A stretch of 64,000 nt of DNA from IMG/VR virus record IMGVR_UViG_2974518997_000001, positions 33,758 to 97,757 of that record; one strand, 5' to 3'. The notes below the pieces were generated by a model. That model was not told where the DNA came from and did no database searches. It was given only the letters and a program-made list of their open reading frames with translations. The translations under genes were made by a program, and so were the position numbers. This DNA is from a virus. Taxonomy: Duplodnaviria; Caudoviricetes. Shown piece after piece: positions 4,343 through 48,125 of this stretch (its first letter is position 1; the number at the start of each line of letters is the position of its first letter).

Positions 4343-4377
4343 GTGCTACACTCGTAACACGGAAGGAAGGGCCTTCC
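4343..4377 (+). promoter_or_regulatory. Extended -10 promoter (GTGCTACACT) plus 5' AAGGG-loop hairpin, copy 1
   Basis: TGnTACACT, then GGAAGG-AAGGG-CCTTCC at 4361-4377. Confidence 0.75.
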
Positions 4378-4727: not shown

Positions 4728-4766
4728 GTGCTACAGTGGTAACACGAGCTGGGAAGGGCCCAGCTC
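4728..4766 (+). promoter_or_regulatory. Extended -10 promoter (GTGCTACAGT) plus 5' AAGGG-loop hairpin, copy 2
   Basis: GAGCTGGG-AAGGG-CCCAGCTC at 4746-4766. Confidence 0.75.
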
Positions 4767-21842: not shown

Positions 21843-21884
21843 GTGCTACAATAGTATTACGGAAGGGCGAAGGGCGCAACTCCG
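21843..21884 (+). promoter_or_regulatory. Extended -10 promoter (GTGCTACAAT) plus 5' AAGGG-loop hairpin, copy 3
   Basis: GCG-AAGGG-CGC with outer CGGA/TCCG pairs. Confidence 0.7.
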
Positions 21885-29163: not shown

Positions 29164-29199
29164 GTGCTACACTTGTACTACAGGAACGAAGGGCGTTCC
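29164..29199 (+). promoter_or_regulatory. Extended -10 promoter (GTGCTACACT) plus 5' AAGGG-loop hairpin, copy 4
   Basis: GGAACG-AAGGG-CGTTCC at 29183-29199. Confidence 0.75.
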
Positions 29200-33740: not shown

Positions 33741-34096
33741 GTACTTCACGATTCGATCCGACACCGGATCAGCCCTATGGCACCTGCCTGACGTGCGGGG
33801 AGGTCATCCAGACCTCCGAGGACGCCACGGCGCATCTGTCCAAGACGTTCGACGAGTCGAAGGCCGTCCGCGGCGACCTCTCGGCGACGTCACACCGCGT
33901 GCAGGGCACGAACCCCGACCGTGCGAGCCGGATCCAGTCGTTCGTCGATCAGGAGATCGAGGACGCGCTCGAGAACCTCTACGAGGAGCTGGATCGTGAG
34001 GTCACCCGGAACAATCTGACCGAGGAGGAGCTGACCGAGGCCCTCCGTGACGCAAGCGCCGACCTGGTGGACGGCTGGAAGAGGTACATCGCATGA
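33737..34096 (+). CDS. Hypothetical protein (CxxC...H)
   Basis: GTGA overlap. Confidence 0.65.
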   Translation: MSTSRFDPTPDQPYGTCLTCGEVIQTSEDATAHLSKTFDESKAVRGDLSATSHRVQGTNPDRASRIQSFVDQEIEDALENLYEELDREVTRNNLTEEELTEALRDASADLVDGWKRYIA

Positions 34097-38160: not shown

Positions 38161-40179
38161 GTGACTGACGACGTAAAGCCGAAGAATCTGTTCGTTCCAG
38201 GTGGACCGGAGCGGTATCAGCATCAGAAACGAGGACTCCAAAAGATCATCCAGACGCGCGGTGTCTGCGCGCTTCTGTTCGACCCGGGCACGGGTAAGAC
38301 GGCGACGACGCTGGACTTCATCAGCCTCCTCGCGCTGAAGAGTCCGGACAAGCTCGACTCGTTCGGCCGTCTGGTGAAGGAGGCTCGCGTCCTGGTGGTC
38401 GCGCCGCTCGCGGCGATCGACACGTGGGTGCTCCAGTCCTCGAAGTGGGTCGCCGACGGCGTGAACTTCTGGGCGGAGGCTCTCGGCGGATCGATCCTCG
38501 ATCGCGCGGAGACGATGGCCGCTCGCGGTGGTCAGCCGTTCCTCGAAACGGTCTCTCGCTTCATCATGAAGGCGCAGGACCTCGAGGACCAGGACATGAA
38601 CATTCCGGTCCCGTTCGCGTACACGCCTCCGCGCACGCCGCGCTGGGTGTCGGCTCTGAAGAAGAGCGCGACGTTCCTGCACGAGAGCGGCATCGATGAG
38701 AAGCGCTCGCGCACGTCGCTCAAGACGAAGTTCAGCCGGTCGTACCCGATGATCGAGAAGAAGGTGATCCACGAGACGGTCGACGAGCTGTGCGCGACGG
38801 AGTGGGCGAAGCCTCTCAAGCGCGCTCCTCGGGCGCTGAACGTCGACAAGGCGATCGAGGTCTCGTACCGCGCGGACAGCCGGGGCAGTGACCGCCCGCT
38901 GACGCTCACCGAGGGTCCGGACGGCCTGGGCAAGGACAAGCCTCGCATCGTGCTCCTGGCGACGAACTTCGACACGTTCCAGACGCGGCAGATGGTGCCG
39001 GGCACGTCGAAGTCCATGGCCGATCAGCTCCTCGAGGCTGTGCGCCGGTTCGATCCGGACCTGGTGGTCGTGGACGAGGCTCACAAGATCAAGAGCCCTC
39101 GGTCGAACGTGTCCCGGCTCCTCGGTCGCATCGGCGAGAACGTGCCGCGGCGCATCGCGCTCACGGGCACGATCATGCCGGCGGGACCTCTCGACGTCTG
39201 GGGCGTGTGGCGGTTCCTCGAGCCGTTCGCGTTCGGACCGACCCTGCCGGACGGCACGAAGCGACGGCTGTCGTACGAGGGCTTCAAGGAGAAGTACGCG
39301 GTGCTCGGCGGCTACATGGGCAAGGAGGTGAAGGGCTACAAGAACCTCGACGAGATGCAGAACATCATGTCGATCAACTCGTCGGTGGCCCGGAAGGCGG
39401 ACGCTCTGCCGGACCTCCCGAAGGCGCTGGACGTCGAGGTGCCGATCATCCTGAACCCGGCTGAGCTGAAGGCCTACAAGGACATGAAGCAGGGCTTGGT
39501 GGCTCAGCTGATCGATCCGGCGACGGGCGGTCTGCTCCCGGCCACGGCAGGCTCCCGGCTCACGCAGATGCTCAGGCTCCGCCAGATCACCTCGGGACAC
39601 CTGCCTGACGACAACGGCGGCCTGCACCGCCTCGGCGACTCGAAGGTGGCGGCGATCGCGTCGATCGCGGAGGACAAGCTGATCGGCGAGAACCGCATCG
39701 TGATCTTCTGCTACTTCATCGACGAGCTGCACGCTCTGCAGAAGAAGCTGGAGCGGGACGGCAACGAGCTCATGATCATCGACGGCTCGACACCGGCGAC
39801 CGAGCGGCTGAAGATGCGTCAGCGCTTCGGTGACCGGGACGTGAAGGACCGGATCATCATGATCACCCAGATCCGGACGATGAGCCTGGCGGTCAACGAG
39901 CTGGTGACGGCGAGCCACGCGATCTTCGGCTCGCTGCCGCAGACGCGCGATGACATCGTCCAGGCGCGTGACCGGCTCGACCGCATCGGCCAGACGCTCC
40001 CGTGCACGTTCTGGTTCGTGCTGGCACCGGCGACGATCGACACCGCGATCTACCAGTCGTACCGGGACAAGACGAGCCTCGAGGGTGCGGTGCTCGCGCA
40101 CATTCTCGACCTCGATCCCGAGACGGCTGAGCAGATCATGGTGCTCACGCCGGATCAGCTGGCGTCGATTGGTGCATGA
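38161..40179 (+). CDS. SNF2/SF2 DNA helicase
   Basis: DPGTGKT; VVAP; DEAH; LTGT; LRQI; QARDRLDRIGQ. Confidence 0.92.
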   Translation: MTDDVKPKNLFVPGGPERYQHQKRGLQKIIQTRGVCALLFDPGTGKTATTLDFISLLALKSPDKLDSFGRLVKEARVLVVAPLAAIDTWVLQSSKWVADGVNFWAEALGGSILDRAETMAARGGQPFLETVSRFIMKAQDLEDQDMNIPVPFAYTPPRTPRWVSALKKSATFLHESGIDEKRSRTSLKTKFSRSYPMIEKKVIHETVDELCATEWAKPLKRAPRALNVDKAIEVSYRADSRGSDRPLTLTEGPDGLGKDKPRIVLLATNFDTFQTRQMVPGTSKSMADQLLEAVRRFDPDLVVVDEAHKIKSPRSNVSRLLGRIGENVPRRIALTGTIMPAGPLDVWGVWRFLEPFAFGPTLPDGTKRRLSYEGFKEKYAVLGGYMGKEVKGYKNLDEMQNIMSINSSVARKADALPDLPKALDVEVPIILNPAELKAYKDMKQGLVAQLIDPATGGLLPATAGSRLTQMLRLRQITSGHLPDDNGGLHRLGDSKVAAIASIAEDKLIGENRIVIFCYFIDELHALQKKLERDGNELMIIDGSTPATERLKMRQRFGDRDVKDRIIMITQIRTMSLAVNELVTASHAIFGSLPQTRDDIVQARDRLDRIGQTLPCTFWFVLAPATIDTAIYQSYRDKTSLEGAVLAHILDLDPETAEQIMVLTPDQLASIGA

Positions 40180-40472
40180 TGTCTCGCTCGAAGCATGCAC
40201 CCGAGCCAGGGATGATGTTCATCAGCGGCGTCGACTATCACGACGGCGAGCGGTGGCGTCTGTACGTGAACAGCCGGTGGCTGTGGAAGTACGTGCTGGT
40301 CGATCAGAAGACGGCGCAGATCGCGTGGCGCGCGCTGTCGACGCTCGACCGCCTCGAGGTCGCGATCCCCGAGGATGCCGAGGTCTTCCAGGTGCCCGTG
40401 GAGGAGCGCTGGGAGGGTCCGGAGGGCGAGAAGGAGGCCTACCGGAGGCTCGTCGAGGGACTGGCATCGTGA
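40176..40472 (+). CDS. Hypothetical protein
   Basis: Overlap coupling. Confidence 0.65.
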   Translation: MMSRSKHAPEPGMMFISGVDYHDGERWRLYVNSRWLWKYVLVDQKTAQIAWRALSTLDRLEVAIPEDAEVFQVPVEERWEGPEGEKEAYRRLVEGLAS

Positions 40473-40474
40473 CC

Positions 40475-40729
40475 ATGGTCCGCGACTACGAACGGCTGAC
40501 GAAGGCGGACGTGCCCGCATTCGACCAGGAGGCGCTGAAGCTCCTGTGCGAGATGCAGGACGCCGGCTGGCGCGGACGGGTCAGCGTACGGGGTCACGCG
40601 ATCCTGTACGCGCCTGACGGCGTGACGACGGCGGCCTTTGCCCGCTCGTCGCTGCGCGGTCGCTCGGGTCGGAACGCCCGGGCGACGTTCGAGAGATGGA
40701 AGCGCGCACAGAGGGGCGAGGGAGAGTGA
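40475..40729 (+). CDS. HicA-like small protein
   Basis: AGW....RGH..L..PDG pattern; size fits the HicA fold. Confidence 0.5.
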   Translation: MVRDYERLTKADVPAFDQEALKLLCEMQDAGWRGRVSVRGHAILYAPDGVTTAAFARSSLRGRSGRNARATFERWKRAQRGEGE

Positions 40730-41022
40730 CGGCGAAGCGGTACATCTGCAACATCGACGGCTGCACGAAGGAGTTCCACGACGATCGCGGGCTGGGCATC
40801 CACCGGGCGAGCCACCTCGGGCAGAAGGAGAAGTGCCCGCGGTGCGGCAAGCAGGTGAAGTACCTCGACACGCACATGCGTCGAGTGCACACCGAGGACC
40901 CGGAGAAGGTGCTCGAGAGCATCACCTCGCTGTTCGTGGAACTCGAGCTGGCGCGGCAGACCATCACCGAGCTTCGACAGCAGTTGATCGAGGCTCGACA
41001 GCATCACACAGACACACCCTGA
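40726..41022 (+). CDS. Tandem C2H2 zinc-finger protein
   Basis: Cx4Cx12Hx3H followed by Cx2Cx9Hx4H. Confidence 0.75.
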   Translation: MTAKRYICNIDGCTKEFHDDRGLGIHRASHLGQKEKCPRCGKQVKYLDTHMRRVHTEDPEKVLESITSLFVELELARQTITELRQQLIEARQHHTDTP

Positions 41023-41112
41023 TTCCATTCCTCTATTCCATTCCTCCCTCCTCCCTATCTATAGATAGGGAGGGAGGAAAGAGGAAAGGAATGAATCAGG
41101 AAAGGGAATCGA
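41019..41112. repeat. Polypyrimidine/hairpin/polypurine element, copy B (inverted relative to copy A)
   Basis: Central palindrome CCCTATCTATAGATAGGG; shares a 26-mer and GGAATAGAGGAAT with copy A on the opposite strand. Confidence 0.8.
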
Positions 41113-41130
41113 ACGAGAGAAGAGGAACGA

Positions 41131-42489
41131 GTGATTCACGACGAGACGGACTACTTCGACTACGACGGGGAGAAGGTCCAGGCGCACTACAGCAGCCTCA
41201 CGATGCACCGAAAGTGCCCGGAGGCGTGGTTCTTCCGGTACAACCTGGGACTGCGTCAGAGGCCCAGTGGCGGGCCGATGACGTACATGCACGCGGGGTC
41301 TTGGTGGGGCGCTCTGCGCGCGGCGGACATCTACGAGCGCGGACGCCAGATCGGTTCCCTGCTGACCGGCGCGGCGTTCGGGCGACCCTTCGGCGCGACG
41401 GACACCTACAGCGACGACGGGACTCCGGTGCCGAAGTTCGACCCGGCGAGCGTGACGCGCAAGGACGTGCTCATGGCCGCGATGGTCTGGTGGAAGCGTC
41501 TGCCGCAGGAGCACAAGGACGACTTCATCGAGAAGATCGGCAAGCCGCTGGTCCCGCACCTGATCTACACCTTCGAGCAGTGGCGCGATCGCTTCGGCGC
41601 GGAGACGAAGACCGAGCGGCCTCTCGGTGCTGAGGTGTTCTGGAAGCGCCGTCTGCCGCGCCCGGAGGGTGATGCCGCGTGGGCCGGGAACGAGGAGCTT
41701 CCGGAGATGTGGCTTCTCGGGTATGTCGATGAGGTCTACGAGGACACCGAGCGCGGCCTGATCGTCGTGCGCGACCACAAGTTCAACAAGAACATCGGCG
41801 TGCACACGGTCATCGACGACATGATGGACAGTCAGCTCGAGCTGTACGGCTGGGGCATGGGTCCGGCTCTGCAAGCGGCGGGCGTCGACCAGGTGCGCGC
41901 AGTGGCCTACGACCGGGCGAAGAGCGTGGCTCCGAAGCCTCCGACTCTCACGACGGCCGGACGGCTGGCATCACGCGGCGGCGAGCCCTCGGTGAACTCC
42001 TCGGACCTGCGGACCTACCTCGAGTGGGCGAACGGGCCGGAGGGCAACGGCATCGAGTGGCGTGGGGCTGCGATCCCGATGAACAAGGCCGAGAAGGAGG
42101 ATCCCTCCCTCGGGCGTCGGTACAAGGAGGGCGGTGTATATACACCCGAGCCGGCGATCATCGACAAGCTCTCCTCGGAGGCCCAGCGTGCGCAGTGGTT
42201 CCAGCGGAAGCTGATCCCGCTGAACACGAACGTCGTGAAGGCGCATCTGCGCGCGGCGATCGATAGCGCGACGGATATCTGGCGCACGACGAAGCGGGCG
42301 GAGCTGACCGGCGGTGCCTCGAGGAACCTCTCGAACGCGAACTGCCAGTGGTGCGACTTCCAGGCGATCTGCCAGGCGCGCATGCGAGGCGGCAACCAGG
42401 GCGTCTACGACCTCGTGGACTACGGCCTGGTGTCGAAGCGCGGCGAGGTGCTGGCGGGCGGCAAGATCCTCGAGCTGGCGAACTCCTGA
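41131..42489 (+). CDS. PD-(D/E)XK Cas4/RecB-like exonuclease
   Basis: SSL...KCP; GYVD; VRDHK; QL.LY; CxWCDFxxIC. Confidence 0.85.
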   Translation: MIHDETDYFDYDGEKVQAHYSSLTMHRKCPEAWFFRYNLGLRQRPSGGPMTYMHAGSWWGALRAADIYERGRQIGSLLTGAAFGRPFGATDTYSDDGTPVPKFDPASVTRKDVLMAAMVWWKRLPQEHKDDFIEKIGKPLVPHLIYTFEQWRDRFGAETKTERPLGAEVFWKRRLPRPEGDAAWAGNEELPEMWLLGYVDEVYEDTERGLIVVRDHKFNKNIGVHTVIDDMMDSQLELYGWGMGPALQAAGVDQVRAVAYDRAKSVAPKPPTLTTAGRLASRGGEPSVNSSDLRTYLEWANGPEGNGIEWRGAAIPMNKAEKEDPSLGRRYKEGGVYTPEPAIIDKLSSEAQRAQWFQRKLIPLNTNVVKAHLRAAIDSATDIWRTTKRAELTGGASRNLSNANCQWCDFQAICQARMRGGNQGVYDLVDYGLVSKRGEVLAGGKILELANS

Positions 42490-42734
42490 GGAAGGCCCGA
42501 GCCGCGGTGGGACAACGGCGAGAGTGTCCCTCTCCCGCTACCGCGGCTCGGACCGACGCGAGGTCTCGGTCTCGATCTCAGTCACATCGCTCAGGCGTGG
42601 TAGCCGCTATGAATCGGCGCATCATTGACCGTGGGACGGTATCCATGTCCGACTGCCGTCGAGCCTAGCGTGCTACATCGGTCGGAAAGTAATCGGGTCG
42701 GGTATCACATTTTCTCCCACACTCGCGTCCTCCC

Positions 42735-42770
42735 GTGCTACACTTGTACTACAGGGAGGAAGGGCCTCCC
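42735..42770 (+). promoter_or_regulatory. Extended -10 promoter (GTGCTACACT) plus 5' AAGGG-loop hairpin, copy 5
   Basis: GGGAGG-AAGGG-CCTCCC at 42754-42770. Confidence 0.75.
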
Positions 42771-42788
42771 GGGTTGGGATGTAACACC

Positions 42789-43058
42789 ATGGCTACTCTG
42801 ATGAGCGCTGACGAACTCTTCAAGCGGACACAGATCGCGCGCGACGCCTACATGCAGACGGGCTTCCTCGGCGGCTACCGCGAGGTGCGCAGTGACCTGG
42901 TCAACTGGCTCGAGCACAACACGGACGATGAGGTCCAGCTGGCGTACCTGCCCGGCATGTTCGACGTGGCCACGCTGGCACCATTCGCCTCGGAGGTCTA
43001 CAACTACGCCTGGCAGGAACTGCTGAACGGCCTCGAGGAAGTCGAGCGCAACGCGTGA
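42789..43058 (+). CDS. Hypothetical protein
   Basis: First gene after promoter copy 5. Confidence 0.7.
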   Translation: MATLMSADELFKRTQIARDAYMQTGFLGGYREVRSDLVNWLEHNTDDEVQLAYLPGMFDVATLAPFASEVYNYAWQELLNGLEEVERNA

Positions 43059-43333
43059 ACGTCGAGATCAACGACATCGTCCTGCTCGGGCTGTTCATCC
43101 TCGTCGGATCTGTCGCGCTGATCGTCGGTGCTGCGCTGGGCGCGTACAGCGCGTTCCGCCAGACGAAGGACGACGAGGCGAAGGCCTGGGACAAGGGCTA
43201 CCGCGCTGGGACCCGTGATTCGGTGAGCGCGCTGACTGGCCTCAACTCGGAGTCGACCAAGACCCCGAATCCCCACAGACTCCGCGGGCCCTTCCCGCGG
43301 CGCACAAAGGCGGAAGACGCTCCCCACGTCTGA
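43055..43333 (+). CDS. Single-TM membrane protein
   Basis: N-terminal hydrophobic helix. Confidence 0.7.
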   Translation: MNVEINDIVLLGLFILVGSVALIVGAALGAYSAFRQTKDDEAKAWDKGYRAGTRDSVSALTGLNSESTKTPNPHRLRGPFPRRTKAEDAPHV

Positions 43334-43410
43334 GCCGTGCGGGTCGTCTCTCTCCTCCCCCTCAGGAGAGAGACGGCTCGGGCAGCTTGGCCCGCAACCT
43401 AAGGAGAATC

Positions 43411-45486
43411 ATGAAGAAGGCACTTCCCGGCTGGATCGCAGCCACTGTCGCCGGCGGGCTTCTGCTCGCCAGCCCGACCGCCGCTTCGGCGACGCTCACT
43501 CACGAAGAACCCAAGACCGATTCGTTCGGTGTCTGCGTTCCGACCGACGACACGACGACGACCGTCGTGACGCCCGCCGTCGGCACGCCTACCATCGAGG
43601 TCAAGAACCCCGAGTACGTCCCGGCGACGCCCGGTACGCCCGAGGTTCCGGCCGTCGGTGAGCCGACGATCAAGGTCCCGAACCCGGATTACGTGCCCGG
43701 AGTCCCCGGCACCCCGGGAACGCCCGCGATCGGTGACGAGACGATCGAGATCCCGAACCCGTCGTACGTCCCGGCTGTTCCGGGCACCGAAGGCACTCCG
43801 GAGATCCCGGCAGTCGGCGAGCCGACGATCTCGGTTCCCAACCCCGACTACGTGCCGGCTGTCCCGGCCACGCCCGGCACTCCGGCGATCGGCGACCCGA
43901 AGATCGAGGTCCCGAATCTCGACTACGTCCCCGCCGTGCCCGCCGTCCCGGCGAAGCCCGCCGTGGGCGAGCCGACCATCGAAGTCCCCAACCCGGACTA
44001 CGTCGCTCCGACGTACACGCCCGGCTACTGGAAGCACGTCCCCGCGACGTACACCCCGGGAGTCGGCACGCCGAAGATCACCGTCGAGAACCCCGACTAC
44101 GTTCCGGCCGTCCCCGCGACGCCTGGATCGCCTGCCGTCGGCACCCCGACGATCATCGTGACCAAGCCGAACCCGGACTACGTCCCGGCTGTCGCGGAGA
44201 TCCCCGAGCAGTCGCACACCGACTACGTGGCGAAGCGCTACGTCATCGACCAGCACGCACAGCCCGCGGTCACGAAGACGCAGTGGCGCTACGTGAAGAA
44301 CGGCGGCTACGGCGAGGTCTGGCTCGACTCGAACGCCGAGCAGAAGGTCAAGATCAACGGCTACTGGTACGAGCGCACGAGCAAGACGCGCACCGTCGAG
44401 GTCACGCCCGCACAGCCCGAGAAGGGTCACTGGGAGCAGCAGACCTTCCACGAGTACCCCGGAGCCGGCTGGACGATCCTCTCGGAGTCGAAGCACGTGA
44501 CCCAGGCCTATGTGCCCGGCACTCCCGCGCAGGGCTCGGAGACCATCGAGGTCGAGGAGACGAACCCCGACTACGTGCCCGCGGTTCCCGCGACGGACGA
44601 GATCCCGGCTGTCGGAACGCCGACGATCGAGATCGACAACCCCGACTACGTCGCGCCGGTCTACACCCCGGCCACGAAGGTCTGGGTGCCGCCGGTCTAC
44701 ACGCCCGCGGTCGGCTCGAAGACGATCACCGTCGACAACCCGGACTACCAGCCGGCGACGCCGGAGATCCCGGGCACTCCCGCCGTGGGCGAGCCCTCGA
44801 TCATCATCGACAACCCGGAGTACGTGCCCGCCGTTCCCGGCACGCCGGAGATCCCTGCGGTCGGCGAGGAGAACATCCAGGTGCCGAACCCGGAGTACGT
44901 TCCTGCGGTTCCGGCTGTTCCCGGAACGCCCGGAACCCCGGCTGTCGGCAACCCGACCGTGACCGTGCCGAACCCGGCATACGTCCCGGCCGTGCCGAGC
45001 ACTCCGGACATCCCGGCGATTGGTGAGCCCGAGCTCGAGGTGCCGAACCCCGCGTACGTGCCGGCGATCCCCGCGGTCCCCGGTACTCCCGCCGTCGGCG
45101 AGGAGACGATCACGGTGATCAACCCGGACTACGTGCCCGAGAAGATCACGATCGTCGTCGTGCCCGGTGTCGACTGCCCCGTCGTCCCCGAGGAGCCCGA
45201 GGAGCCCACGACTCCGGAGGAGCCCACCACTCCCGAGGAGCCGAAGCCCGAGGAGCCCGCGGTCGTGACGCCTCCGGCCGAGCAGAAGCCGGTTCAGGCC
45301 GCGGTCACCACCCGCGCCGCGGCGAAGCAGGCCTCGGCGAACACGCTGGCTGAGACGGGCGTCGACGGAGCCACGAAGCTCTGGGCCCTCTCGGGAGGCG
45401 CGCTGGCCGTGGCGGTCGGAGCGGGTCTGACGGTGCTCGGCATCCGTCGTCGCGACGTCGCTGGCCAGAACAACCAGCAGGACTGA
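43411..45486 (+). CDS. Sortase-anchored (LAETG) cell-surface protein with 16 NPxYVP repeats
   Basis: AAGGAG RBS; signal peptide ending ASA; LAETG, TM helix and RRRD tail. Confidence 0.85.
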   Translation: MKKALPGWIAATVAGGLLLASPTAASATLTHEEPKTDSFGVCVPTDDTTTTVVTPAVGTPTIEVKNPEYVPATPGTPEVPAVGEPTIKVPNPDYVPGVPGTPGTPAIGDETIEIPNPSYVPAVPGTEGTPEIPAVGEPTISVPNPDYVPAVPATPGTPAIGDPKIEVPNLDYVPAVPAVPAKPAVGEPTIEVPNPDYVAPTYTPGYWKHVPATYTPGVGTPKITVENPDYVPAVPATPGSPAVGTPTIIVTKPNPDYVPAVAEIPEQSHTDYVAKRYVIDQHAQPAVTKTQWRYVKNGGYGEVWLDSNAEQKVKINGYWYERTSKTRTVEVTPAQPEKGHWEQQTFHEYPGAGWTILSESKHVTQAYVPGTPAQGSETIEVEETNPDYVPAVPATDEIPAVGTPTIEIDNPDYVAPVYTPATKVWVPPVYTPAVGSKTITVDNPDYQPATPEIPGTPAVGEPSIIIDNPEYVPAVPGTPEIPAVGEENIQVPNPEYVPAVPAVPGTPGTPAVGNPTVTVPNPAYVPAVPSTPDIPAIGEPELEVPNPAYVPAIPAVPGTPAVGEETITVINPDYVPEKITIVVVPGVDCPVVPEEPEEPTTPEEPTTPEEPKPEEPAVVTPPAEQKPVQAAVTTRAAAKQASANTLAETGVDGATKLWALSGGALAVAVGAGLTVLGIRRRDVAGQNNQQD

Positions 45487-45494
45487 TCCTGCGG

Positions 45495-45527
45495 CTCGCC
45501 TCCACCGCCCGAACGGTGGAGGCGGGT
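45495..45527 (+). terminator. Hairpin after surface-protein gene
   Basis: CGCCTCCACCG...CGGTGGAGGCG. Confidence 0.55.
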
Positions 45528-45571
45528 CGGGACGATCAGCTCTCGATCAACGCTCAGATGAAGGGATAGTC

Positions 45572-46468
45572 ATGAGCACTGAAATCCAGGAGTACGCCGT
45601 CACGTTCGGCGTGCAGTACGGCCGCTTGCCGGACGCCGACCAACACCCGCAGGGCTTCCACGGCGATGAGTACATCGTCATCGAGGCTCCTGACGAGGTC
45701 GTGGCACGGAAGATCGTGTTCGCGATCGTGAGCGACCGCTGGGCGGGGCTCTACCCGCTCGAGGAGTTCGTCACGCATCCGATGCGCGGCACGTGGCACC
45801 CGAACGGCGAGGTCCTTCGGATCGCGTGGCAGACGCCGGATCAGATGAACGACATCATGAACACGATGGAGTCGATCGTCGAGGGTCACCCGGCGACGCC
45901 CGACAGCACGCTTCTCTCGCAGGCGAAGCCCGGCGAGGCGTGGCAGATCAGCTGGTACAAGAACCCGAAGCTCCGCAAGACGGAGGCGGCGATCATCACC
46001 ACGGCGGGCCGTCTGCTGATGCGAGATGCCGACGGCGACCACAAGTACATGGATCGCGACGACGAGCGCATCGAGAGCGCTGTGCGCATCTGGCGCGGTG
46101 ACATCCTGCCGGTGCCCGCGCCGGAGCCGACGATCAGCGATCACATGGACAGCGTCCGTGACCGCTTCGCGGCCATGGGCTCTCCTCGGGCCGTCGCCGA
46201 CAAGGCGGAAGCGGTTGAGCTGGAGAAGCGCGCGGCTCAGCGCGCTGACCGTCACCGTGCGGATGACGAGGCCGCTGAGGTCTACGCGAACCGCCCGACC
46301 GCCACCGATCTGCTCGAGGAGGCCGACAACCCGTTCATCTGGGACGGTCGAGGCCCTCTGGCGATCCTCGCAGTCCATGCCCACGTGCACGAGCCGTCCG
46401 GCACGTGCCTCAAGAACCGATTCGGCGCGCTGTGCACGCCTCTCGTCCAGAGCGGAGAAGAAGAATGA
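45572..46468 (+). CDS. Hypothetical protein
   Basis: RBS; VTFG motif; phage-like codon use. Confidence 0.7.
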   Translation: MSTEIQEYAVTFGVQYGRLPDADQHPQGFHGDEYIVIEAPDEVVARKIVFAIVSDRWAGLYPLEEFVTHPMRGTWHPNGEVLRIAWQTPDQMNDIMNTMESIVEGHPATPDSTLLSQAKPGEAWQISWYKNPKLRKTEAAIITTAGRLLMRDADGDHKYMDRDDERIESAVRIWRGDILPVPAPEPTISDHMDSVRDRFAAMGSPRAVADKAEAVELEKRAAQRADRHRADDEAAEVYANRPTATDLLEEADNPFIWDGRGPLAILAVHAHVHEPSGTCLKNRFGALCTPLVQSGEEE

Positions 46469-46833
46469 CCAGCATCGTGGCGCGCGCGGCGCGCGAGTTC
46501 CTGAACGACGAGGCGAAGCGCGAGAAGCGCCCTCGGTTCACCGAAGGTGACCGGAACAGCCTGCACTGGTACGTCAACACCCTGGAGGACGTCACGGGCG
46601 ACTCCGCCTTCGTACACGCTCAGCGAGGCCGTGCGGCGGTCGACCTGATCGGCTACGGCGGTGAGGAGGACGAGGAGCCGGCGGTCAACGTGATCGCGGA
46701 CATCCTCCAGCACGTGAAGGCGATCGGCCTGGACCCGATGACCGTTCTCGCGCACGCTCGGGCGGAGTTTTTCCGCGACGAGAAGCTGGGGCCGATCGGC
46801 GTCCCCTCGGAAGACTCGGAGGTGCTGTCGTGA
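46465..46833 (+). CDS. Hypothetical protein
   Basis: ATGA overlap; IADIL.H motif. Confidence 0.7.
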   Translation: MTSIVARAAREFLNDEAKREKRPRFTEGDRNSLHWYVNTLEDVTGDSAFVHAQRGRAAVDLIGYGGEEDEEPAVNVIADILQHVKAIGLDPMTVLAHARAEFFRDEKLGPIGVPSEDSEVLS

Positions 46834-47225
46834 GCTTCGAGACGACCGTGGAGGTCCGCGGCACGAAGTACTTCGCCGAGCTGGTGCGCATCACGCGCAC
46901 GCACATCGGCTACGAGGATCACGGGATCTTCTCCATGAACATCGACTTCGAGGGCCTCTCGGGAGGCTGGGGTCAGGGCCTCGGCCATCGGTTCATGACG
47001 GACCCGATCGTCTTCCACACCTGGATCCAGCTGATCGTCGATCATTTCGGACCCTGGCAGGACCTCAAGGGCAAGGAGCTCTACGCCCTGTACGAGAAGA
47101 AGAACCAGGAGATCGTGGGCCTGGCGAGCAAGTCGGACCAGAGCAGGATCTTCACTCTCGGAGACGTGGACATGCTCATCGCCAAGGCGCGCGAAGAGTA
47201 CCTCGCATCGGTGGTGAGCGAATAA
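46830..47225 (+). CDS. Hypothetical protein
   Basis: GYEDHGI...GGWGQG.G motif; GGAGG RBS. Confidence 0.7.
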   Translation: MSFETTVEVRGTKYFAELVRITRTHIGYEDHGIFSMNIDFEGLSGGWGQGLGHRFMTDPIVFHTWIQLIVDHFGPWQDLKGKELYALYEKKNQEIVGLASKSDQSRIFTLGDVDMLIAKAREEYLASVVSE

Positions 47226-47770
47226 TGGGCTCGACGATGAGTCTGGCCGTTGTTCCAGCCCCGCACTTCTGGCCGCTCGCGGAGCACCTGAGCCGTGAGG
47301 CGGCGTCCGCCGACGCGCGCGATGCGCACGAGGCGAACTTCTCCTACGATGAGCGCACCAAGCACATGGAGGCGCGTCACCAGGTGCGTCTGCGTTTCAT
47401 CTACTCGCTCCGCCTCGACGCGAACCTCAAGACGATGACGCCCGGCGACATCGACGAGTTCATCGACAACCGTCTGCCCGATCCCGACGATCTGGTGGAC
47501 TACTCGGACGAGCTGAAGCGCTCGTTCGTGCGTCAGCAGATCATGCTCGACCTCGAGGCCGCCGCTTTCGGGTACAACCGCGAGGTTGTGCAGATCGACC
47601 TGGACGGCAAGAACTGGTTGATGACCGGCGGCATGACGAACGGTGACGGTCCGACCGAGGCCTACGACCAGCTGAACCGCATCGACGACATGGACATCCT
47701 CGGCATGGCGATCAGCGTCCAGGAGATCACCGCGGCGATCGAGTACGAGAAGAGCCTGCGCAATGTCTGA
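47225..47770 (+). CDS. Hypothetical protein
   Basis: TAATG coupling; TGGMT.GD.PT motif. Confidence 0.7.
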   Translation: MGSTMSLAVVPAPHFWPLAEHLSREAASADARDAHEANFSYDERTKHMEARHQVRLRFIYSLRLDANLKTMTPGDIDEFIDNRLPDPDDLVDYSDELKRSFVRQQIMLDLEAAAFGYNREVVQIDLDGKNWLMTGGMTNGDGPTEAYDQLNRIDDMDILGMAISVQEITAAIEYEKSLRNV

Positions 47771-48125
47771 GCCGGAGAGCGACTCCTATGTCGCGGTGCA
47801 CAATCGCCTGAACCGACGGAGAGGCTCTGCTCGACTGCATTCGTGCTCTGCTGACGGCTGTGATCGACCCGCTCTCACCTGGGCTTGGCAGAGAGTCGGT
47901 CCTTCCAGAACAGGTCCTGCTCGACCGGGACGAGCCGTCGTAAGCTGGGGAACTCGAATCGAGGACTACTCCCCGATGTGCGCTCGTCATTCTCGTCAGC
48001 TGGATCATGGCGGTACTCTGACGCACTGCTCACGCGGGCACGAGCGCACGGAACAGAACACCAACTCGGCAGGCGTTTGCGCCCGATGCCGAGCCGACGA
48101 TGAAGCAGATCGGAGAAGGCAATGA
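47763..48125 (+). CDS. HNH-related Zn-binding protein
   Basis: H.RL...RG.A..H.C...C; C-terminal THCSRGHE....NT....C..C; more A/T-ending codons than neighbours. Confidence 0.5.
   Translation: MSEPESDSYVAVHNRLNRRRGSARLHSCSADGCDRPALTWAWQRVGPSRTGPARPGRAVVSWGTRIEDYSPMCARHSRQLDHGGTLTHCSRGHERTEQNTNSAGVCARCRADDEADRRRQ

Follow-up and report, generated by a model that had tools for sequence, protein, structure and literature searches.

The stretch of DNA analysed here (the window) comprises 64,000 nucleotides (nt) and corresponds to positions 33,758 to 97,757 of the virus record IMGVR_UViG_2974518997_000001. This record has a length of 97,757 bp and is estimated to be complete; among named phages, Microbacterium phage Rasputia (Rogerhendrixvirus, 97 kb) is most closely related to it. 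An open reading frame (ORF) on the plus strand (43387-45486) encodes a repetitive protein of 691 amino acids (aa), hereafter P0001, which is most probably exported, folded into a two-armed stalk and attached to the cell wall of the host. The ATG at 43411 is the likely start, because the ribosome-binding site AAGGAG (43401-43406) lies 4 nt upstream and gp119 of Rasputia, to which P0001 is 94.9% identical, is annotated with equal length. The coding sequence therefore spans positions 43411-45486, stop codon included.

Organization of the encoded protein

All features of the protein are given with their positions on the plus strand. Residues 1-27 (43411-43491) were assigned by inspection of the sequence to a predicted Sec-type signal peptide, which consists of MKK, a hydrophobic core and the end ASA in front of a threonine; this N-terminus is conserved in the alignment of the homologues. 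It is followed by the N-terminal side of a base module (43534-43575) with the nearly invariant Cys42 (43534-43536) and a strand (residues 48-54) that pairs with residues 578-584 in the structural model. The left, outgoing arm comprises the NPxYVP units 1-8 (residues 66-262; 43606-44196) and contains 24% Pro, and the right, returning arm comprises units 9-16 and a closing strand (residues 377-588; 44539-45174) with 22% Pro. Both arms are strongly acidic. Between them lies the centre (residues 263-376; 44197-44538) with 5 Trp, 8 Tyr, 1 Phe and 5 His residues. It is predicted as an all-beta tip rich in Trp and Tyr, the outer strands of which (267-281 and 355-365) prolong the zipper of the two arms.

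Behind the right arm, Cys589 (45175-45177; motif VDCPV) is invariant in the alignment and is a candidate disulphide partner of Cys42 (motif GVCVP). These are the only two Cys residues of the protein, and they flank the repeat array. An acidic spacer of 56 residues rich in Pro, Glu and Thr follows (590-645; 45178-45345; 23% Pro, 11 Asp or Glu residues), which presumably spans the wall and is modelled with a predicted local distance difference test score (pLDDT) below 50. The protein ends with a putative cell wall sorting signal (45346-45483), composed of LAETG (646-650), a hydrophobic segment (657-678), three Arg residues (679-681) and a short tail. An initial annotation, made from the DNA letters and their translation, had already reported the signal peptide, the LAETG motif with membrane helix and basic tail, and the two flanking Cys residues, and all of them were recovered here.

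Mirror symmetry of the repeat array

Using a regular expression, 16 N[PL]xY[VQ] motifs were located at residues 66, 91, 116, 144, 169, 194, 227 and 254 on the left side of the centre and at residues 385, 410, 443, 468, 493, 521, 546 and 571 on the right side. The spacings are 25, 25, 28, 25, 25, 33 and 27 residues in the left arm, 131 residues across the centre, and 25, 33, 25, 25, 28, 25 and 25 residues in the right arm. The eight plus eight NPxYVP-type repeats of the initial annotation were thus reproduced with exactly the same spacings. The variants of 33 aa with the pattern YVAP.YTP...YTP are units 6 and 10, and those of 28 aa are units 3 and 13; as had been claimed, both kinds occupy mirror positions. 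If the Asn positions of mirror pairs are added, the innermost pair gives 639 and the remaining seven give 637, which agrees with the two extra residues that had been noticed just before repeat 9. In the model, the strands flanking the centre have a length of 7 residues each. The spacings of the right arm (five of 25, one of 28 and one of 33) can be arranged in 42 orders, one of which mirrors the left arm.

The repeat units share 55-77% identity at the DNA level and are, judged by sequence, old and diverged. In the repeat identity matrices, the two 33-aa units are mutual nearest relatives. Direct block duplication was considered as the source of the symmetry and was rejected, as these matrices are without a block pattern. 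Since an inverted duplication of DNA is unable to yield a mirrored protein, the symmetry must be kept at the protein level.

Distribution and repeat numbers of homologues

With tblastn the family was detected in 120 phage records, all of them from Microbacterium phages, which are SEA-PHAGES isolates with M. foliorum NRRL B-24224 as host. A search at the protein level yielded 83 clusters, and every one ends with LAxTG, a hydrophobic stretch and basic residues. In the phage records the members are annotated as 'hypothetical' or 'membrane protein'. One exception concerns P0030 (a cluster of 18 sequences) from Microbacterium phage Potty, which carries the name 'DnaE-like DNA polymerase III alpha' at NCBI; this looks like an annotation error, since the sequence consists of a signal peptide, a hairpin with two repeats per arm, Cys-rich domains and LAQTG.

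In all 82 complete homologues the number of repeats on the left equals that on the right, and every state from 1+1 to 8+8 (left + right) occurs. The automatic census by regular expression gave 73 of 83 sequences as symmetric; the exceptions were due to missed motifs or false matches in the centre, apart from P0006, which is N-terminally truncated and stands outside the 82 complete sequences. The architecture of close relatives was segmented by hand. The state 8+8 is found in the protein of the window and in Rasputia, 7+7 in gp77 of RobinRose and in P0002, 6+6 in P0008, 5+5 in P0003 and P0005, 4+4 in P0004 (phage Fizzles) and P0013, 3+3 in P0007, P0010, P0011, P0012 and P0014, 2+2 in P0009, and 1+1 in a chromosomal copy of M. 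jejuense. Depending on the protein, the unit has a length of 17, 19, 22 or 25 aa, which is equal in both arms of each, and the long unit variants of 28-35 aa stand at mirror positions in the homologues as well. The sum of the mirror-motif positions is constant in each of the 16 close homologues compared, and in all of them the sum of the two Cys positions equals that of the outermost Asn pair minus 6. Repeats are therefore gained or lost in symmetric pairs, as had been expected if the arms are paired. As far as we can see, this pattern has no alternative explanation. The centre of P0003 is 95% identical to that of the window protein, yet P0003 has the state 5+5 and not 8+8; repeats have accordingly been gained or lost symmetrically in recent time and more than once.

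Within this subfamily, conservation is higher in the tip (95% identity to P0003) than in the arms (76%), whereas between subfamilies the tip is replaced wholesale. This pattern would fit a specific binding end. A search with the tip domain among 1.84 billion representatives returned 17 clusters, all of similar architecture. In P0048, P0085, P0091, P0096 and P0097, a tip rich in Trp and Tyr is flanked on both sides by DWLxEAPEGxGW repeats. The occurrence of the same tip together with this other arm module suggests that tip and stalk can be combined independently.

The chromosomal copy mentioned above is a minimal family member of M. jejuense HU14 (NZ_JAEUAW010000012.1, L003, 5896-6915). It consists of a signal peptide, a Cys residue, one NPDYVP motif on each side of a Trp-rich centre, a second Cys residue, an extra domain and LAATG. 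It is surrounded by ordinary genes, coding for regulators and a large membrane protein, with no obvious prophage. An origin of the family from the host chromosome was considered and rejected, as a true homologue with the hairpin part was present in only 1 of 101 Microbacterium genomes, namely that of M. jejuense; the remaining matches comprised the sorting-signal end alone. The proteins thus form essentially a phage family.

Predicted hairpin structure

The whole of P0001 was modelled with AlphaFold2 on the basis of 14 sequences, and the pairing of the arms was read from DSSP assignments and pLDDT patterns. In this model the centre reaches pLDDT values of 83-87 and many blocks of the arms values of 70-82. 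Each unit shows a strand of 5 residues on TIxVP and isolated beta-bridges at every third residue of YVPxVPxTPxxPAVG. The bridge residues are located immediately N-terminal to each proline, as expected for polyproline-like segments that touch a partner once per turn. No helix was predicted outside the C-terminal membrane segment.

According to DSSP, a partner at position 632-i exists for 69 of the 78 left-arm residues in strands or bridges, and likewise for 19 of 21 isolated bridges. The next best register explains 10, and pairing within the same arm at i+25 explains 7 of 21. The register i+j=632 extends from the base (48-54 with 578-584, and 57 with 575) to the centre (261 with 371). Unit i is thus paired with unit 17-i in the model, as the initial annotation had predicted. 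Furthermore, residues 240-395, i.e. one unit per arm and the centre, were modelled separately with 10 sequences, and the pLDDT increased to 92.6. No second unit of the same arm is present in this segment as an alternative partner. Both termini are modelled with confidence and pair with each other (4/150, 19/135, 22/132 and 25/129), as do the strands 8-14/139-145 and 28-42/116-126, which indicates that the zipper continues into the centre. The central domain had been imagined as sitting on top of the stalk; its position at the distal end is retained in the model, but it is not a separate globule, since the zipper enters the centre (267-281 with 355-365). The distal beta-sheet tip would accordingly be reduced to about 75-100 residues in the model.

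The symmetric repeat numbers of the homologues and the antiparallel pairing in the AlphaFold2 models are two independent lines of evidence, and we are highly confident that the arms form an antiparallel hairpin. Judging from their conservation and register in the 16 close homologues, Cys42 and Cys589 probably close the base of the rod by a disulphide bond.

Searches for related folds and families did not reveal any known counterpart. P0001 had no match to Pfam (E ≤ 1) or PHROGs, and ten relatives compared to Pfam gave sub-threshold matches to anchor or Excalibur models and nothing else. A search of the PDB by sequence profile was without a match for the family. When the models of the whole protein and of the centre were compared by Foldseek against the PDB and by VIA-align, no usable fold was obtained: Foldseek E values were at least 0.05, the weak top matches including phage tail proteins, and the best fold matches (Z 4.0-4.6) were beta-hairpins of about 40 residues in ribosomal proteins. 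In the ESM Atlas no usable match was found (template modelling score <0.45), and the matches in BFVD were members of the same phage family alone. The architecture of the rod is apparently new.

Probable anchoring by sortase

Class E sortases recognise the motif LAXTG (PMC5148588). No sortase is encoded in the 97,757-bp phage genome, and 95 of 101 Microbacterium genomes contain a class E sortase scoring above the cut-off of model NF033747 (242 bits in M. jejuense). The reading of LAETG as a substrate motif of an actinobacterial class E sortase, which had been put forward in the initial annotation, fits these data. In addition, the C-terminal part of the family profile picks up other proteins in 24 of the 101 Microbacterium genomes, and the sorting signal of the phage proteins therefore looks host-like. 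The homologue P0045 comes close to the cut-off of an anchor model (24.8 in comparison to 27 bits, NF058582). Taken from its sequence features, P0001 is likely to be anchored to the wall by the host sortase.

Genomic context and lifestyle of the phage

Neither a tyrosine integrase nor a serine recombinase was detected in the whole 97.7-kb genome. The statement that visible lysogeny genes are lacking, which had been made for the window, consequently holds for both types of recombinase in the entire record, which is consistent with the description of such phages as lytic (PMC7302621).

The stalk gene is located among genes of replication type, coding for a Cas4-like exonuclease, a helicase and RtcB, and far from the structural and lysis genes. 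Also in RobinRose, ValentiniPuff and KaiHaiDragon the homologue is surrounded by non-structural genes and separated from its neighbours by an intergenic gap at either end. In the window the gene is enclosed by two strong RNA hairpins of the plus strand, both without a U-tail. The first (43333-43387; arms of 24 nt) separates the stalk gene from the small membrane-protein gene upstream, has a folding energy of -42.6 kcal/mol (z -4.1) and may act as terminator, attenuator or stabiliser; the second lies just past the stop codon (45492-45529; -34 kcal/mol, z -5.7). In both cases none of 200 shuffled sequences was as stable. The hairpins on both sides suggest an insulated, moron-like cassette.

A nucleotide search with 8 kb of the window (40000-48000) revealed similarity to the otherwise unrelated 62-kb Gillianvirus-type phages (RobinRose, Kelcole, Pepe25, OneinaGillian and others) in the stalk gene alone; they share 78-84% nucleotide identity with positions 43793-45245. 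In the closer relatives Leaf and Dewdrop, the same position is occupied by another family member, P0038, which has the state 2+2 and extra Cys-rich domains. Both observations suggest that the cassette is exchanged between phage lineages.

Proposed function and alternative explanations

On balance, we favour the explanation that the gene product is a surface protein of the infected cell, i.e. an exported hairpin rod anchored by sortase, and not a part of the virion. The protein would be exported by the Sec system, and the signal peptide would be cleaved after ASA. Outside the membrane the arms would zip in antiparallel orientation, unit 1 with unit 16, unit 2 with unit 15 and so on up to unit 8 with unit 9, with short TIxVP strands alternating with stretches that have Pro at every third residue and touch the partner arm at each third residue. 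With about 205 residues per arm at approximately 3.1-3.3 Å, the two-chain rod might reach up to about 60 nm if it is straight. Its base would be closed by the probable Cys42-Cys589 bond, and its far end would be formed by the beta-sheet tip of about 75-100 residues rich in Trp and Tyr. The class E sortase of the host would then cleave LAETG between Thr and Gly and link the protein to the peptidoglycan. With the acidic Pro/Glu/Thr spacer passing through the wall, the rod would project from its outer side.

The purpose of such a protein is most likely an alteration of the surface of the infected cell, as the gene belongs to a lytic phage and forms an insulated cassette among non-structural genes. 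By devoting 2 kb to a surface protein, a lytic phage would most plausibly change what gains access to the infected cell. Llp of phage T5 and Ltp of the Streptococcus thermophilus phage TP-J34 are phage-encoded surface lipoproteins that block further infection. By analogy with these proteins, the rod might prevent the adsorption of other phages or of the phage's own progeny to the infected cell or its debris, either by binding through the tip or by steric shielding; this is the leading suggestion, though a tentative one. The complete picture, in which a hairpin rod planted by the host sortase, with a length tunable in pairs, uses an exchangeable aromatic tip to intercept or block rival phages, must be regarded as rather doubtful.

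Several observations weigh against the explanation of a disulphide-closed, wall-anchored hairpin acting on the infected cell. The model of the whole protein is moderate, with a mean pLDDT of 60, a predicted template modelling score of 0.23 and several stretches of the arms below 50. The bridge pattern within a unit is itself palindromic, so that the evidence for the register is strong but indirect. A contact between Cys42 and Cys589 is not seen in the model, and distant subfamilies are without a second Cys residue at the equivalent place. P0001 stays below the cut-offs of the anchor hidden Markov models (9.8 in comparison to 30 bits for NF041528 and 21.9 in comparison to 200 bits for NF041527) and has no match to TIGR01167 or PF00746. 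Finally, phages of one host strain carry differing tips and rods of different length, which does not fit a single host target in an obvious way.

In the main rival explanation, the wall-anchored hairpin serves as an adhesin. The tip would bind a wall glycopolymer or protein of neighbouring cells, infected cells would clump with uninfected ones and the burst would reach new hosts. A stalk with a tip is a design typical of Gram-positive adhesins such as AgI/II, a surface rich in Trp and Tyr is a frequent trait of sugar-binding proteins, and the rods, ranging from 1+1 to 8+8, recall length-variable bacterial adhesins. However, the fold searches gave no match to a lectin or another carbohydrate-binding protein (best Z 4.0), Pfam was without a domain match, and the tips are unrelated in phages of one host strain. 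This function is considered unlikely.

It is less probable still that the protein is not processed by sortase and stays in the membrane by its C-terminus, with the hairpin within or just above the wall. The low bit score against the curated LPXTG/LAETG anchor models (9.8 in comparison to 30) would be explained in this way, and the tail of 9 residues after RRRD and the annotation of some homologues as 'membrane protein' would also be in accordance with it. On the other hand, the canonical motif, the helix and the basic tail are present in every homologue, the C-terminus resembles proteins of 24 of 101 Microbacterium genomes, in a genus with a near-universal class E sortase, and the Pro/Glu/Thr spacer of 56 residues is the usual wall-spanning element.

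The arms might also be unpaired, as flexible Pro-rich spacers beside a folded domain, with a symmetry that arose by accident during descent. Disorder is common in Pro-rich repeats, and the arm stretches with pLDDT values below 50 could be read in this sense. Such an accident would have to account for symmetry in 82 of 82 homologues over eight repeat numbers with mirrored unit lengths, although inverted DNA duplication cannot mirror a protein and no direct block duplication is visible; it is also at variance with the inner hairpin (pLDDT 92.6, paired termini) and with 19 of 21 isolated bridges in one register. We regard unpaired arms as very improbable. A virion or lysis component, i.e. a decoration or fibre protein or a factor of envelope disruption, can hardly be considered, since, despite an elongated, beta-rich shape like that of fibres and weak Foldseek matches to phage tail proteins, the fold matches are not significant, the cleavable signal peptide and the sorting signal place the protein outside before assembly, and the gene stands among replication or early-type genes.

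Comparison with known surface proteins

The surface protein proposed here resembles the streptococcal AgI/II adhesins (SpaP, SspB), which are sortase-anchored and have a tip domain on a long out-and-back stalk, in which Ala-rich alpha-helical A repeats on the N-terminal side pair with Pro-rich P repeats on the C-terminal side in matched numbers. In P0001, too, the chain is predicted to run out and back with a domain at the far end, and a putative sortase signal is present. In contrast to AgI/II, both arms consist of the same Pro-rich unit of 25 aa and contain no predicted Ala-rich alpha-helix, the tip is a small beta-sheet without a lectin-like match, and no C-terminal multi-domain region was recognised. 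Moreover, P0001 has LAXTG (class E) and AgI/II LPXTG (class A), and P0001 originates from a lytic phage. Neither a lectin-like V-region, nor C-terminal domains with isopeptide bonds, nor any other AgI/II structure was among the matches listed by the fold searches, and there was no AgI/II match in Pfam (E ≤ 1).

In 'periscope' proteins (SasG, Rib, proteins with SHIRT domains), folded domains are arranged in tandem in a single pass, often with nearly identical DNA repeats. The stalk family shares with them a repeat number that differs between homologues and sets the projection of the functional end. P0001 differs by its predicted two-pass hairpin and by units of 55-77% DNA identity. As a consequence of the two-pass hairpin, the length of the rod changes in matched pairs alone.

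Phage-borne sortase substrates have precedents. SasX is a sortase substrate of a staphylococcal phiSPbeta-like prophage. Huge gut phages carry their own sortase B together with substrates containing SHIRT or FctA domains (bioRxiv 10.64898/2026.10.24.761521). Like these proteins, P0001 is supplied by a phage and has a signal peptide and a sorting signal. Unlike them, which belong to temperate phages or to phages with their own sortase B, the stalk occurs in lytic actinophages of 50-100 kb and is putatively dependent on sortase E of the host, and its fold is unrelated to theirs. Lom of phage lambda is another phage surface protein that interferes with incoming phages (bioRxiv 10.64898/2026.10.24.761521). 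Llp, Ltp and Lom are lipoproteins or outer-membrane barrels, whereas P0001 has an AxA site for signal peptidase I and a sortase signal. A lipobox is not present in P0001; the signal ends with ASA before Thr, and the first Cys is residue 42. Among the class E sortase substrates of Actinomycetota are the chaplins ChpA-C of Streptomyces (structure of SrtE1, PMC5148588). P0001 has LAXTG, a hydrophobic helix and a basic tail in common with them, and its passenger domain is unrelated.

In the literature searched, no description was found of this family or of lytic actinophages exploiting the host sortase, nor did any paper link LPXTG to Microbacterium phages, sortase to actinobacteriophages in such a role, or LAXTG to the biology of phages. 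Neither sortase nor LPXTG is mentioned in the main paper on Microbacterium phage genomics. A recurrent investment in the host surface, shared by about 120 sequenced Microbacterium phages of several lytic clusters that are unrelated to each other, would thus have gone unnoticed. The family would add a case in which a phage exploits the sortase of its host without encoding its own, complementing the reports on phage-encoded sortases. The natural series from 1+1 to 8+8 represents a molecular ruler for the projection distance that a surface protein needs, and the design of the arms, for which no solved counterpart was found, might be worth considering in protein design and in surface display on Gram-positive bacteria. 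Should the complete picture with its blockage of rival phages be true, the architecture of the protein would be new, and so would a class of devices that depend on sortase and exclude one phage by another in Gram-positive hosts. Microbacterium phages and M. foliorum NRRL B-24224, a harmless bacterium of soil and leaves, are easy to handle, and these questions are directly testable.

Further elements upstream of the gene

The initial annotation had placed the gene downstream of the fifth copy of an AAGGG promoter. The repeated motif is real: TGCTACA-N(3-30)-AAGGG occurs five times on the plus strand (0.07 expected), at 4344-4371, 4729-4758, 21844-21874, 29165-29193 and 42736-42764, and over 20 nt copy 5 is almost the same as copy 4 (TGCTACACTTGTACTACAGG). 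This element probably functions as a promoter or leader motif of the phage. Copy 5 is located about 650 nt upstream of the stalk gene and is a possible transcription start for the downstream small genes and the stalk gene; small ORFs and the strong hairpin at 43333-43387 lie between them. A scan for the sigma-70 consensus revealed no promoter near the stalk gene.

Directly upstream of the stalk gene, a small membrane protein of 92 aa with one N-terminal membrane helix is encoded on the plus strand (43055-43333). It was considered as a conserved partner of the stalk protein and rejected, as it is kept in Rasputia, Leaf and Dewdrop alone and has no match in RobinRose. It is absent from the other clusters carrying the family, and in Rasputia, Leaf and Dewdrop its gene always adjoins a gene of the stalk family.

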